Shown: piece after piece, positions 27,168 to 38,464 of the stretch
Layout of the letters: each line of letters opens with the position of its first letter
How positions within the stretch are numbered: the first letter of the stretch is position 1
Source of the DNA: Candidatus Hermodarchaeota archaeon
GTDB lineage: Archaea > Asgardarchaeota > Hermodarchaeia > Hermodarchaeales > Hermodarchaeaceae
DNA: 64,000 nucleotides
Reading direction: 5' to 3'
Assembly: GCA_016839365.1 (NCBI GenBank)
Contig: JAEOUH010000071.1
Span: forward strand, 1-64,000
Position numbers and translations under genes: made by a program
The notes under the pieces: generated by a model
What the model was told of the DNA's origin: nothing
Seen by the model: only the letters and a program-made list of their open reading frames with translations
Database searches by the model: none

Positions 27168-28157
27168 TTGACAAAACCAAGCACAATAAAATACCTAGCT
27201 ATACTAGGCGGAGTTGGAGCTGTAATCAGCCCATTCATTGCCCTCACCATGTCAATAGCAACGCTTCCCCGCTATTATTATATTCCCCTCTATTACATAT
27301 ACGGTGCAGGTTCCATTTTGTTTTTCCTGTTATTTTTGACTGGATTATTGGCGTTAATTCTGACCATCCACACCGCACAATTTACTTCTAAGATGCCACA
27401 ACGAGCAGCCACAGACTTGAAAACAGTTGGCATCGTTGTTATCATCGTGGGCATAATCTCAATATTCAACCTGGTAACCATCATCTCGGGCTTGCTTATT
27501 TTAGCTGCTGGCGTCGAATGTAGTTCAATTTGGCAAAAAATTCGTCAGGCTCGAACGAAAACTGGATGGCCTTTTAACACGGTTGCTACAGCAGCAGGAA
27601 GCACTTGGGCGCGAAGAATGTCATGCCAATTTTGTGGAGCACCTCTTGTCATTATGACTGCATCATCCTATGGGCATTTAGTTCACATTGACACCCAATG
27701 TCCGTTGGATGAAACTCATGAGACCCTTCAACTCCCGCTTTCTCAATTAGATATTTGGGCTCCAGTAGCTGCTGATCGGCTGCATCGCTGTGTGAAATGT
27801 GGGGAACGAACCATCGCTCAAATCATTATTCGCCAAACTCACGTCTCCTCTCAATTACAAGCATATTGTCCTCATGGACACCCCAACCGAATCTACCGAA
27901 GCATTTGGACACCACTCTACCCTTATGTAGCCCGCATACCGAGTACAGATATTGGTTTCCAGGAAGCCCGAATCACACCCCGATTCCGCCCAGCTATATT
28001 CACTCCTCAAATAGAACCCCGTCAACAACCCATAACCATATCATATAGTAATATTGAAAGTATACGTACCGGACCGATAGGATACTGCACTCAATGTGGT
28101 GTAAAAATTGAATCCTCTGATCGATACTGCTTCCGGTGTGGCGCATCCATCCGATAG
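27168..28157 (+). CDS. membrane protein with repeated Zn-binding modules and C-terminal double zinc ribbon
   Basis: 3-4 TM helices; two CxxCG...CP repeats; CTQCG-x8-YCFRCG. Confidence 0.8.
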   Translation: MTKPSTIKYLAILGGVGAVISPFIALTMSIATLPRYYYIPLYYIYGAGSILFFLLFLTGLLALILTIHTAQFTSKMPQRAATDLKTVGIVVIIVGIISIFNLVTIISGLLILAAGVECSSIWQKIRQARTKTGWPFNTVATAAGSTWARRMSCQFCGAPLVIMTASSYGHLVHIDTQCPLDETHETLQLPLSQLDIWAPVAADRLHRCVKCGERTIAQIIIRQTHVSSQLQAYCPHGHPNRIYRSIWTPLYPYVARIPSTDIGFQEARITPRFRPAIFTPQIEPRQQPITISYSNIESIRTGPIGYCTQCGVKIESSDRYCFRCGASIR

Positions 28158-28160
28158 AAA

Positions 28161-28694
28161 GTGAAACTTATGGTTCAAGCAGCAATTGAAGCAAACTTTA
28201 CCTGTTCATGTGGAACACCCTTCATTGTGATGACACTCGATCCAGCTCCAAACGATAAAATCAACGCTTTATTGGTCTGCCCGCGACACAGGGTGGGCCA
28301 TCACATAACCCTTGACCATTCAGGCCTGGATCTGTGGATAAGCGTCGTTGCGAATCACCTGTATCGGTGTGGTGTGTGTGGTCGAGAACTTACTCCACCG
28401 AGTGCAGTCAGTTCCACAGACATTGCCACCACCTTCACGCTTAACTGCCCTGTTCACGGCTCACAAAACAACACACGAACCGTATGGAGTGTATTGCATC
28501 GGCGCCTTCTCTCTGAAATCCAACAACAACGGGAACTACCGGTCCCTGAAGAAACATCAACAGTTCCCGATAAACCGAAAACACAACCCGCTGTGGAAGA
28601 CCCTGGAGTAAAAGCCACGTTTTGCCCCCAGTGTGGAAAGAAAATCCGCCCCCAAGATAATTTTTGCTTCATTTGCGGTAGCGCTATAGACTAG
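28161..28694 (+). CDS. soluble paralog of the preceding Zn-module protein
   Basis: CSCG...CPRH, CGVCG...CPVH, CPQCG-x8-FCFICG. Confidence 0.8.
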   Translation: MKLMVQAAIEANFTCSCGTPFIVMTLDPAPNDKINALLVCPRHRVGHHITLDHSGLDLWISVVANHLYRCGVCGRELTPPSAVSSTDIATTFTLNCPVHGSQNNTRTVWSVLHRRLLSEIQQQRELPVPEETSTVPDKPKTQPAVEDPGVKATFCPQCGKKIRPQDNFCFICGSAID

Positions 28695-33115: not shown

Positions 33116-35047
33116 ATGAAAGGGGCGCGATCACTTTTTTGTCTCCTCCTTATCCTGCTCTTTCTTCTTCCTTCAAACGCCCCAATCGATTTTAGGACCT
33201 CCCAATCATCGCCAACTCCTCAAATGGTCTCAACCTTACCCAATAGGGACCAGGTATTAGATTCCTCACCAGAGAAGTCGACGTTTTCGTCGAATGGAAA
33301 TGCTCCCCGGAATTGGACAGTTCTTGTGTATATGGCTGCAGACAATGATCAGGAATTTGCTGCCATTGAAAACATCAAAGAAATGGAAGTTGTTGGGTCA
33401 ACCGAGCAGGTGAATATCCTAGTCTATGTGGATTTCCTGACTAACAACACAAGCTATGGTCCAGGAGCCTACACCTTCAATATTACAAAGGATGAGCCGC
33501 CGTTGAATAACACAATTGTTTCTGAGCCCTTGAATACTACGCTACCTGATGAGCCCAATATGGGGGATCCCACTACTCTTTTCGGCTTTATCGAATTTGG
33601 CCAAAACTATTCTCAGGCCGCTAACTATCTCCTCATCCTATGGGATAAGGGAGGAGGTTACAAGGGAGTATGTTATGATGACACCAGTGGTGGAGACCAT
33701 CTCCTCCTTCCTGAACTCGCGACTGTCCTCGAAAATGATACCCTCGAGCCCATCACTCTCATTGCCTTTGACGCTTCATTCATGGGGCAAATGGAACTCG
33801 CTTACGAGTTAAAGGACAGCACCGAGTTCATCGTTTTCTCAGAAGAGGCAGTTCCTAACCAGCATTTCCCCTACCACATTATTTTCAATAGCCTCATTTC
33901 ACACGAAGATTCAAGTCCATACTTATTGGCGAAAGAAATCATTGACCGCTACATTGAAGCCTACTCCCCCCTCGGAACATACCATAATCCAGTTTCACCA
34001 CAGACTCGGCTTTGCCTTTCAGTCGTTAACACAACACTAGTAGGTGATGTCTTCGATTGGTTCAATCGAACCACTACCTGGCTAACCACTGGTTATAACA
34101 CTCTTACTTACTATCAAGAAATCAGTGCCGCACGGGGATTAACTCAACAGTTCAACCTGCCTTACTACATCGATTTAGGTGGCTTCGCCTATCAACTCTC
34201 ACAGTTAATACAGAATATCACATTCACACATTATACTGGGAATCTTAGCCTCAGTATTCAGGCAGCAGTTTCCTACAACCGTGCCCTCTCCGGGCTACCT
34301 GGTACGTCAGGGCTAGCCATAAATTTCAACTCTTATGAGCCAGTGTCACTGGCACTTCTAAATAATGCCGTATACGAAGAGTTTCTTTCCACGTTCCTTA
34401 GCCTTGGAGAAACAACAGACACCTCCATTATCTCATTGACACTTGGTCCCCTTCAGGGGTACCTGGATGGAAAAGATGACTCCGTATTTTATCGGTTCAC
34501 CTCACAAATCGCTGTGGAGCATACCATCACGCTTGGCGCATTTCAATCCACTGACGACGACTTTGACCTCTATTTATATGATAGTAATCTGAACCTCCTC
34601 ACCCGATCTGTCGGCTTAGCATCCGATGAAGCCATACAATGGGTTCTGATTCCTGGACGGCTCTACTATATACATGTTCATTCCAGTCCACGAGCTGAGA
34701 TCACATATGGACTCGGTTCATTTGAAGTGCGTATAATTCCAAGTTCACCGATTAATCCAGCAACAGTTGCACTGCATATTGGAATCATCGTGGCCATCAT
34801 CTGTTTACTCTTTCTTGCGCTCTACATCATCTGGCGTAATCGAGAACACATCACAGGAGCCATTGAACGATATCGGGTCCGACGAGTGGCGAGGCGACTC
34901 CAACCTGAAGCATCGACGGGAACTATACAATCAACCGCTACGCCCGGAGCTTGTTTGAAGTGTGGTGAACAGCTCCCTGAGGATGCACGATTCTGCCCCA
35001 ACTGCGGCGAAACTTTCGAGGATTCTTCAGGCGAGACCAAGGATTAG
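33116..35047 (+). CDS. clostripain-fold (C11) membrane protein with substituted catalytic dyad, PPC-like domain, TM helix and cytoplasmic zinc ribbon
   Basis: WTVLVYMAADN, EPNMGDPTTL..F, YLLILWDKGGG, FDASFMGQMELAYEL, SEE; DFDLYLYD; CLKCG..FCPNCG. Confidence 0.85.
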   Translation: MKGARSLFCLLLILLFLLPSNAPIDFRTSQSSPTPQMVSTLPNRDQVLDSSPEKSTFSSNGNAPRNWTVLVYMAADNDQEFAAIENIKEMEVVGSTEQVNILVYVDFLTNNTSYGPGAYTFNITKDEPPLNNTIVSEPLNTTLPDEPNMGDPTTLFGFIEFGQNYSQAANYLLILWDKGGGYKGVCYDDTSGGDHLLLPELATVLENDTLEPITLIAFDASFMGQMELAYELKDSTEFIVFSEEAVPNQHFPYHIIFNSLISHEDSSPYLLAKEIIDRYIEAYSPLGTYHNPVSPQTRLCLSVVNTTLVGDVFDWFNRTTTWLTTGYNTLTYYQEISAARGLTQQFNLPYYIDLGGFAYQLSQLIQNITFTHYTGNLSLSIQAAVSYNRALSGLPGTSGLAINFNSYEPVSLALLNNAVYEEFLSTFLSLGETTDTSIISLTLGPLQGYLDGKDDSVFYRFTSQIAVEHTITLGAFQSTDDDFDLYLYDSNLNLLTRSVGLASDEAIQWVLIPGRLYYIHVHSSPRAEITYGLGSFEVRIIPSSPINPATVALHIGIIVAIICLLFLALYIIWRNREHITGAIERYRVRRVARRLQPEASTGTIQSTATPGACLKCGEQLPEDARFCPNCGETFEDSSGETKD

Positions 35048-36931: not shown

Positions 36932-38464
36932 TTAGGTATTGAGTTGAAAGCAGACACCACTGAACTGGTCGAAGATGGAACGGAATGCTTTGTAGAGTTT
37001 ATTGTAAGTGGATACCCGCTCTGGGTCAGGCTTAACCTCTCGATCATAGGTAAAAAGATGTTGAAGGTCATCAAAGGACTTGAACTCACCTAAGGCTACT
37101 GCAGCTAATAACGCGACCCCTACGGTACCAGCATCTTGCAGAGTAGTCACACGCTTCAAGGGTACATTGAGCACATCGGCGAATATTTGCATCCAAAGAT
37201 CACTTTTGGCTCCACCCCCACAGATGTTTAAGCCAGGGAAAGAGTGCCCCATACCCTCTAGTACTTCTTTGACCCACCGTGTGTTATAAGCTACTCCTTC
37301 CAGTACTGCTCGGACCATATGGGCCCGTTGATGGTCAAAACTCAGATTCAAGAAAGCACTGCGGATGAAGGGATTGATGAAAGGACACCGCTCACCAATG
37401 GGCCAAGGCAAGTATATGAGATTTCGACTACCAGGAGGAACTTGTTTTGCTTTCTCAGTGATGAGATCATAGACATCAATGTTGGCAGCGGAGGCCTCCT
37501 TAATCTCAGCAGTGCACACATTATCCACTAGCCATGCTAAGCATGCCCCCGCACTCTCCATATGTCCGGTTAATAGTAGTCGGCCTGGTATGGCACTCTC
37601 TACAGTTCCTGCTCCGGCTAGATCAAATTGTGGCTCATCTTGGTGTTGGGCAATCCAACCTGACGATCCGACATATAGGTGAGGTTCTTTGGGTTTTAAT
37701 GCACCAGACCCAATCGGAACAGCCACCATATCACCACAGCCACACACAACCTGGGTTTCAGCTGTTAATCCCATCTGTTTGGCTGCTTCAGGTGAAAGGG
37801 TTCCCAAAATATCAGTGGTCTTTTTGATTATTGCCAACTGGTCCATTGAAAGCCCTAATCCTTCTTCGATGATTTCGGGTTGGGGTTCATGATGATCAAT
37901 CCGAAAATAATTCCACAGACATGCATGACTCCAATCAGTATAGAAATCACCTACACCGGCCTGGAAGAGAATCCAGTCTTTGACATCTACAAACTTCGCT
38001 GCTTTTTTGAAAATATGGGGTTCCTCATGCTTCACCCATAGAATCTTGGGTAGGGGATCCTTTGCGGAAGCGACGGGGATGATATTCTTTGCCAGCATGT
38101 CTGGAATAGTGAACTGGTTCATCAATGGAGTTACATAATCAACAGATCGTACATCGAGCCACAAGATCGTCTTCCGAAGGGGACGTCCCTTCTTATCCAC
38201 AGGAATCACCGAGGCCATCATTGCGTCAACTGTGAAGGCAGTGATTGAACGGGGATCGATACCGGTTTGGTTAATGATCTCCCGGGATGTGGTGGTGATG
38301 GCATCCCAATAGACCTTTGGATCTTGTTCCGCCCATCGCTCCTTGGGGTACTCTACATGATAGGCTTGTGTTGCAGTGCCTTGAACACAGCCTTGCATAT
38401 CAATGATACTGGATTTGGTAGCACTGGTGCCTAAATCACAAGCAAGAATATAGTTGGCAGACAT
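36932..38464 (-). CDS. FGGY-family carbohydrate kinase (xylulokinase-like)
   Basis: DLGTSATK, WAEQDP, WLDVRS, GERCP, RAVLEGVAY, GGGAKSDLWMQIFADV. Confidence 0.92.
   Translation of the reverse strand: MSANYILACDLGTSATKSSIIDMQGCVQGTATQAYHVEYPKERWAEQDPKVYWDAITTTSREIINQTGIDPRSITAFTVDAMMASVIPVDKKGRPLRKTILWLDVRSVDYVTPLMNQFTIPDMLAKNIIPVASAKDPLPKILWVKHEEPHIFKKAAKFVDVKDWILFQAGVGDFYTDWSHACLWNYFRIDHHEPQPEIIEEGLGLSMDQLAIIKKTTDILGTLSPEAAKQMGLTAETQVVCGCGDMVAVPIGSGALKPKEPHLYVGSSGWIAQHQDEPQFDLAGAGTVESAIPGRLLLTGHMESAGACLAWLVDNVCTAEIKEASAANIDVYDLITEKAKQVPPGSRNLIYLPWPIGERCPFINPFIRSAFLNLSFDHQRAHMVRAVLEGVAYNTRWVKEVLEGMGHSFPGLNICGGGAKSDLWMQIFADVLNVPLKRVTTLQDAGTVGVALLAAVALGEFKSFDDLQHLFTYDREVKPDPERVSTYNKLYKAFRSIFDQFSGVCFQLNT

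Follow-up and report, generated by a model that had tools for sequence, protein, structure and literature searches.

A probable catalytically dead clostripain-family protein retained at the cell surface of an Asgard archaeal genus

A clostripain-family (peptidase family C11) gene of an Asgard archaeon likely encodes a catalytically dead pseudo-peptidase on the cell surface, probably with a non-catalytic binding or scaffold role. The gene lies at 33116-35047 in a 64,000-nucleotide stretch (the window) of contig JAEOUH010000071.1 from Candidatus Hermodarchaeota archaeon (assembly GCA_016839365.1), and both positions of its catalytic His/Cys dyad are replaced. If so, this Asgard genus has two versions of a surface protease, one live and one dead, and the dead version is maintained by selection at a constant locus. 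In eukaryotes, several pseudo-enzymes of protease descent (cFLIP, iRhoms and TbMCA4) serve as regulators, and to our knowledge few such proteins have been described in archaea. Full-text literature searches (Asgard with clostripain; clostripain with pseudoprotease) returned no account of this clade or of an Asgard C11 pseudo-peptidase, and a survey of Promethearchaeota counts C11 simply as an extracellular peptidase. Clostripain gene counts that serve as evidence of extracellular protein degradation in sediment archaea would be too high if such copies are included. Here, we add an origin based on synteny, a per-column account of relaxation and, as a lead, a coupling between the lost His and position 250 of the protein.

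The interval is a single long open reading frame (ORF) of 643 amino acids without internal stop codons, and the reverse strand there is stop-rich. Residues 71-381 match the Peptidase_C11 profile of Pfam (PF03415) with 139.7 bits at a cut-off of 25.8. A match to the NCBIfam clostripain equivalog model falls far under its cut-off, and the protein is therefore a clostripain homologue and not clostripain itself. For the N-terminal domain of an AlphaFold2 (AF2) model built from 126 relatives (mean predicted local distance difference test (pLDDT) 89.3, predicted template modelling score 0.79), the best Foldseek matches are clostripain 9cip (E=6e-22), 6n9j, 6nag, 6mzo and PmC11 3uws. Alignments to PDB chains with phmmer place Lys178 under the catalytic His of clostripain (His176, in ANHGGG) and Ser221 under its catalytic Cys (Cys231, in FDACLMG), which is equivalent to Cys179 of PmC11; Bacteroides C11 proteases and PmC11 align at the two dyad positions likewise. 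The initial annotation had read WDKGGG (AAG codon) and FDASFMG (TCA codon) at these positions, which is borne out by the ORF reading, the Pfam profile and the PDB alignments. A true His/Cys pair elsewhere in the protein is ruled out, given that the Pfam profile and four independent PDB alignments all point to Lys178 and Ser221. The only other conserved cysteine, Cys186, is equally conserved in relatives with an intact dyad.

Clostripain (9cip), PmC11 (3uws/4yec) and the Bacteroides thetaiotaomicron proteins (6n9j/6nag) have the same fold and belong to the same family, and the W-D-x-G-x-G and F-D-A-x-x-M-G contexts of C11 enzymes are kept, as is the S1 specificity Asp two residues before the nucleophile site. 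Unlike C11 enzymes, the window protein has Lys in place of His, Ser in place of Cys and His in place of an S1-loop Gly (PmC11 G208). Unlike clostripain, it is without an excised linker, and its C-terminal anchor consists of a PPC domain, a transmembrane helix and a cytoplasmic zinc ribbon. The protein hence has the fold, the profile match and the S1 Asp of family C11 and neither of the catalytic residues, and on these grounds it is best filed as a non-peptidase homologue of the family.

Phylogenetic trees place the Cys-to-Ser replacement in one clade (the Ser clade; 100/100 support) that is nested among clades with an intact His/Cys dyad. Of the 39 Ser-clade sequences, 37 have Ser at the nucleophile site, and the two exceptions have Ala and Asp. 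The His site is occupied by Leu in the basal subclade, Lys in the subclade of the window protein and Tyr in one genome; three lineages have His, and a further one has Val or Ile with a His two residues after the site. Lys is confined to the window protein's subclade, in which 15 of the 19 members have Lys178; one lineage with Glu is nested inside it, and Glu178/Ser221 as well as Lys178/Ala221 members are found. Since both AAA and AAG codons occur across six species-level genomes, Lys178 reads as non-random within the subclade, but it is a local feature. Fitch parsimony was applied to a tree built without the dyad columns (39 Ser-clade and 27 His/Cys sequences). Within the Ser clade the His site changed six times, which is the 72nd percentile of C11 columns, compared with no change among the 27 His/Cys relatives, and the Ser site changed twice in the Ser clade (39th percentile). 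The nesting of the clade and the changes at the His site therefore give the order of events: Cys was probably replaced by Ser once, followed by repeated loss of the unneeded His. This is the signature of a lost dyad and not of a newly fixed Ser-Lys dyad. With the order readable from the tree (Cys first, His repeatedly later), the clade is a natural experiment on the decay of a catalytic site.

Ser221 is encoded by TCA, TCC, TCG, TCT, AGT and AGC without a change of amino acid, and TCN and AGY codons occur together even within the His-less Leu subclade. This codon turnover indicates that Ser is maintained by selection independently of His. We do not claim the TCN/AGY mix as proof of several Cys-to-Ser events, as the conserved Ser columns 266 and 378 show the same mix. 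Across the whole gene, the ratio of nonsynonymous to synonymous substitution rates (dN/dS) is 0.18 between the window and the nearest species (G099), 0.15 for the intact paralogue in the same genome pair, and 0.08-0.22 in other pairs. Throughout the Ser clade 75 C11 columns are unchanged, and conservation is highest in the C11 core (majority fraction 0.75, compared with 0.72 for the zinc ribbon and 0.71 for the PPC domain). The option of a pseudoprotease, raised in the initial annotation, is supported by the kept nucleophile Ser, the variable His site and the dN/dS of 0.18, whereas simple decay, which it had set against its own proposals, is contradicted by the same ratio and by the Ser codon turnover.

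The close relatives are all from Asgard archaea, with submitter labels of Promethearchaeota, Hermod-, Hod- or Odinarchaeota. In a search of 400 genomes from the phylum, only the genus of the window yielded relatives that are full-length and 45-100% identical; its genomes are metagenome-assembled genomes that are 72-91% complete, and absences are soft. The Ser-clade gene is present in 14 of 15 genomes of the genus, including the window's own: 11 copies are full-length, contig ends cut two short and a gap divides one. The divided copy (L014, on G105:C48) has Tyr at the His site, and its apparent split is caused by a scaffold gap of N letters and not by a frameshift. Ser-clade copies were also found in metagenomes at identities as low as 45%, and a metagenome scan added seven further DNA copies to the codon reading. 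A second full-length relative, at 35-40% identity, is carried by 12 of the 15 genomes, and both copies are found in 11 of them.

The window's genome has exactly two C11 genes. The other copy, on contig C42 (L001:739-2643, minus strand), encodes 634 amino acids with WDHGSG and FDACLMG, and hence an intact dyad. Its layout of signal peptide, C11 domain, PPC domain (24 bits), transmembrane helix and zinc ribbon is identical, which shows that the layout described as receptor-like in the initial annotation is ancestral and not special to the dead copy. The locus of the window gene points to its origin. In 7 of 7 genus genomes checked, the same gene order is kept: two zinc-ribbon genes, radical SAM, START, glnA, the gene, pepF, FGGY kinase, aminotransferase and M32 carboxypeptidase. 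Its direct neighbours lie on the opposite strand, with glnA divergent and pepF (M3) convergent. In the sister genus (G108:C23), the position between glnA and pepF is held by a C11 protein with WNHGAG and FDACLMA, which has a transmembrane anchor but no zinc ribbon and groups with the His/Cys sister lineage of the Ser clade. By position, the window gene is therefore orthologous to an intact protease, and the copy on C42 is part of an older paralogous lineage. Both intact proteins share signal peptide, C11 domain, PPC domain and transmembrane helix with the window protein at ~36-39% identity; they keep WDHG or WNHG, FDAC, G250, E244 and E388-x-H390-L391, whereas the window protein does not keep the dyad.

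We then compared the 39 Ser-clade and 27 His/Cys sequences column by column. Asp219, Asn77 (assigned by motif to the position of PmC11 Asn50), Gly179, Trp176, Asp188, Ser242, Glu243 and Tyr253 are fixed in both groups; Asp219 has no changes in either clade and is invariant in 126 aligned relatives at a level of at least 90%. Some columns without any variation in active relatives have become relaxed in the Ser clade (L79, D86, N88, P167, R233, E244, G250, A358, E388, H390 and L391, several of them near the active site), and others are newly invariant in it (R65, E89, N100, the N122-I-T sequon, D151/P152/T154, Y182, S259, E274, R278, N305 and N376). The columns show the pattern of a domain with one function lost and another under constraint. 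The E-x-H-L motif among the relaxed residues (E388, H390 and L391; 34277-34288, with an equivalent in L001) is invariant in 27 of 27 relatives with an intact dyad and is the most relaxed site in the Ser clade, with 10 (H390) and 7 changes. It may be linked to catalysis or substrate binding in the active C11 enzymes of this group.

Position 250 lies on the S1 loop. In the alignment to PmC11 chain B, V246, P247, Q249 and H250 correspond to PmC11 T204, M205, D207 and G208, and the T204-G208 loop lines the S1 pocket of that enzyme (PMC4850288). Among 190 His/Cys C11 domains, 180 have Gly at this position and none has His, Arg or Lys. All Ser-clade members that keep His178 have Gly250, and all that have lost it have His250 (the Lys, Glu, Leu and Tyr subclades) or Arg250 (the Val/Ile subclade). 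A basic residue at this position is also seen in two unrelated degenerate C11 domains from large multi-domain proteins, P0105 (Gln/Ser/His) and P0129 (Gln/Ser/Lys), but P0195 and P0184, which are His-lost Ser domains, keep Gly. An independent-pairs test of His178 loss and a basic residue 250 gave 2-3 discordant and 0 concordant pairs (p 0.25-0.5), which is too few events, and the coupling is hence a lead only. Glu244 is retained almost only where Lys178 is present (15 of 16) and is Ser in the lineage in which Lys became Glu. From these patterns, we propose that Lys178 and His250 now lie at the acidic S1 pocket, which they would neutralise, plug or re-specify; basic side chains at the pocket would also explain the invariance of Asp219. 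A loose analogy is the clostripain zymogen, in which an electropositive linker gates an electronegative pocket (PMC11296011). The recurrent change from Gly to His, Arg or Lys after loss of His is a lead on how a specificity pocket is closed or put to new use. Independent Cys-to-Ser C11 domains were found among the 150 best database relatives, in other large proteins that often have several C11 domains (P0074, P0076, P0105, P0129, P0184, P0186 and P0195). By sequence, degenerate clostripain domains seem to be a recurrent theme in this C11 expansion.

The history we favour begins at the same chromosomal locus with a His/Cys protease that was active and anchored in the membrane. Its nucleophile Cys would have given way to Ser in the ancestor of the genus, after which the dispensable catalytic His would have been exchanged independently in several lineages, with Lys arising in the lineage of the window, while a second His/Cys-intact paralogue of the same architecture was retained in the genome. 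The product is predicted to be a type I membrane protein that is N-glycosylated, faces the cell exterior and has a small zinc ribbon in the cytoplasm. Its dead domain would bind and not cut, for which Ser221 and the S1 Asp219 would have been kept and the pocket probably adjusted by Lys178 and His250. It could be a partner or substrate of the intact paralogue, by analogy with the Trypanosoma brucei metacaspase TbMCA4. Several traits of clan CD pseudopeptidases are also found here: the fold is kept, the nucleophile is replaced, the gene is under purifying selection and an active-type paralogue co-exists.

TbMCA4 (metacaspase 4) is, by analogy, the closest functional precedent. It is a clan CD protein with a natural His/Ser site that is inactive on every substrate tested, it regains activity by the S219C substitution, and it is processed by an active paralogue (PMC3220528). 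The two proteins are alike in their clan, in the natural exchange of Cys for Ser, in being retained by selection next to active paralogues, and in being membrane-associated or extracellular. However, TbMCA4 belongs to family C14 (C14B) and not C11, comes from another domain of life and keeps the His that the window protein has lost. Its inactivity and its processing by a paralogue have been shown, whereas for the window protein they are only inferred.

Some observations weigh against a purely dead domain. Mere tolerance of Ser would not require the conservation seen (37 of 39 sequences), and across most of the window's subclade Lys persists while its codon alternates between AAA and AAG. Ser221 may have a residual or new hydrolytic role. 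In addition, no operon link, partner or ligand was found from the conserved neighbourhood, in which glnA and pepF are on opposite strands. One form of such a role is the Ser-Lys peptidase proposed in the initial annotation, in which Ser221 would be the nucleophile and Lys178, or some other base, would activate it. The purifying selection on Ser221, the Lys178 of 15 of 19 subclade members with its two codons, and the intact S1 Asp219 and Gly-rich motif all fit such an enzyme. However, the His site is His, Ile, Val, Leu or Tyr in other subclades, Glu is nested inside the Lys subclade and one member combines Lys with Ala. The path to Ser-Lys catalysis also passes through His/Ser forms, a state that is inactive in TbMCA4 (one clan CD case tested), and many residues that are invariant in active relatives are relaxed. 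In the established Ser/Lys-dyad peptidases, such as signal peptidase I (S26), LexA (S24) and Lon (S16), both residues are strictly conserved. The window protein shares only the Ser and Lys pair with these enzymes, their folds are unrelated to its own, and across its orthologues Ser and Lys do not go together (Ser in 37 of 39, with K, E, H, I, V, L or Y at the His site). We know of no natural clan CD enzyme with a Ser nucleophile. A C11 fold turned to Ser-Lys catalysis is hence not supported, and we consider it very unlikely. An equally enzymatic reading, which we rate as very improbable, is that the base has moved and His250 (Arg or Lys in other proteins) has taken over from His178 to form a Ser221-His250 pair. 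This would account for the distribution of Gly and basic residues at position 250 in His/Cys domains and in the Ser clade, for its repetition in P0105 and P0129, and for the location next to the S1-pocket Asp207 of PmC11 in the alignment. But the Arg and Lys of some lineages suit charge compensation better than general-base catalysis, P0195 and P0184 have lost His and keep Gly, and the independent-pairs test had too few events.

A broader version, in which the Ser clade has been re-wired, with Ser221 as a nucleophile or covalent trap and the basic S1-loop residue and Lys178 either rebuilding a base or favouring acidic ligands, appears unlikely. If true, it would mean that Asgard C11 expansions have repeatedly given rise to a clan CD fold that uses a serine nucleophile or has acquired a new ligand specificity. 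We also doubt the sensor suggested in the initial annotation, a sub-case of the binding role in which extracellular peptide binding is signalled through the transmembrane helix to the zinc ribbon. The confirmed architecture, a zinc ribbon that is strongly conserved in the Ser clade and the retained S1 Asp are in its favour. However, the His/Cys-intact paralogue has the same transmembrane and zinc-ribbon tail; the tail is therefore not tied to the loss of catalysis, which weakens the receptor idea. Furthermore, the sister genus has an intact positional orthologue without the ribbon, neither a signalling domain nor a conserved regulator gene adjoins the locus, and around S1 conservation is partly relaxed and basic residues have been gained. 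That the gene is a former protease without function, on its way to being lost, is hardly credible. Both catalytic residues are gone and the gene evolves faster than its neighbours (46-88% identity compared with 62-98% for flanking genes), but dN/dS is low in all pairs (0.08-0.22), intact full-length ORFs are found in 11 species-level genomes of the genus and in metagenomes, synteny is conserved and the 75 C11 columns are unchanged. A pseudogene is rejected on these grounds, given that the split G105 copy is an assembly gap.

The coordinates of the gene and its parts are given in Table 1. The initial annotation's layout of signal peptide, C11 domain, PPC-like domain, transmembrane helix and zinc ribbon is confirmed, with the qualification that the PPC domain is weak by sequence and is matched by fold. 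By sequence, PF04151 reaches 14.1 bits at a cut-off of 25.9 (E=0.09, residues 459-523), whereas in the AF2 model the region of residues ~445-542 matches the collagen-binding domain (CBD) of ColG and PPC domains (Foldseek E~1e-6, TM(target)~0.7). The zinc ribbon (Zn_Ribbon_1, PF13240) is found at residues 613-631 with 29.7 bits at a cut-off of 25 and has two CxxC pairs; the four cysteines C613, C616, C627 and C630 are all invariant across the Ser clade. The ectodomain has 12 N-x-S/T sequons, all of them inside the C11 domain, compared with 5.7+/-2.1 expected, and 7 of the 12 are retained in at least 21 of 24 relatives. Enriched and conserved sequons would fit a glycosylated archaeal surface protein. 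Arg65 (33308-33310) is located at the junction between the disordered linker and the first C11 strand, directly before a conserved N-W-T sequon. The Ser clade and its His/Cys sister group (P0029-32) have Arg here without exception, whereas other intact relatives vary, and an Arg-specific C11 protease may process the protein at this site.

Table 1 Position of the pseudo-peptidase gene and of its predicted parts in the window.
Feature	Position	Strand	Evidence
Whole coding sequence; probable C11-family pseudo-peptidase, predicted type I membrane glycoprotein	33116..35047	+	ORF, Pfam, AF2 model, Foldseek
Predicted signal peptide, aa 1-22 (basic n-region, Leu-rich core, PSNA-P)	33116..33181	+	Read from sequence; model helix 4-16
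Disordered, poorly conserved linker, aa 23-63, ends right before Arg65	33182..33304	+	pLDDT <50 at 19-59; majority fraction 0.34
Clostripain (C11, clan CD) fold domain, aa 64-430	33305..34405	+	PF03415 E=2.2e-40; Foldseek 9cip/6n9j
Lys178 (AAG), catalytic His position	33647..33649	+	Alignments
Asp219, S1 specificity Asp (= clostripain Asp229, PmC11 Asp177), invariant in both clades	33770..33772	+	Alignments; PMC4850288, PMC11296011
Ser221 (TCA), catalytic Cys position	33776..33778	+	Alignments
His250, S1-pocket loop (= PmC11 Gly208, adjoining Asp207)	33863..33865	+	PmC11 alignment
PPC / collagen-binding-domain-like beta-sandwich, aa 445-542	34448..34741	+	Pfam PPC weak, E=0.09; Foldseek ColG CBD 1nqd/2o8o, PPC 5sv5, E~1e-6
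Transmembrane helix, aa 548-574	34757..34837	+	Hydrophobic stretch followed by Arg-rich segment; model helix 548-574
Cytoplasmic basic helix, aa 575-600	34838..34915	+	Sequence, model
Cytoplasmic zinc ribbon CLKC-x10-CPNC, aa 612-632	34949..35011	+	PF13240 29.7 bits

The intact paralogue differs between genomes at its N terminus. Orthologues L023, L025, L026 and L027 (G101, G098, G106 and G097) have an extra ~450 amino acids of tandem ~45-residue repeats (GG.G.D......DGG....G.T.S.G.G..D.WL.R.D..G...W) with a beta-propeller-like look, L024 (G102) has a different N-terminal domain, and the copy in the window's genome is without the ~450-residue extension. The genes around the latter (PolB, an FtsX-like permease, an integrase and a major facilitator superfamily (MFS) transporter) are uninformative. 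A tyrosine recombinase or phage-integrase gene (L037:15944-17350, contig C42 of G000) is found ~5 kb from it; in G099 the MFS transporter gene directly adjoins the paralogue, which points to a local rearrangement or insertion in the window's genome.

Downstream of the pseudo-peptidase gene, its stop codon and that of the convergent pepF (M3 oligopeptidase) overlap by 4 nucleotides (35044-35047). With the listed GTG start, pepF and the FGGY kinase ORF share 158 nucleotides (36932-37089), and the true start of pepF is thus probably further downstream. At 27168-28694, two tandem genes end in zinc ribbons, the first of which scores 24.6 bits for Zn_Ribbon_1, just below the 25-bit cut-off. They stay beside the radical SAM/START/glnA block in every genome of the genus that was checked, as they do in the sister genus, and C-terminal zinc ribbons on membrane proteins appear to be common in this organism.

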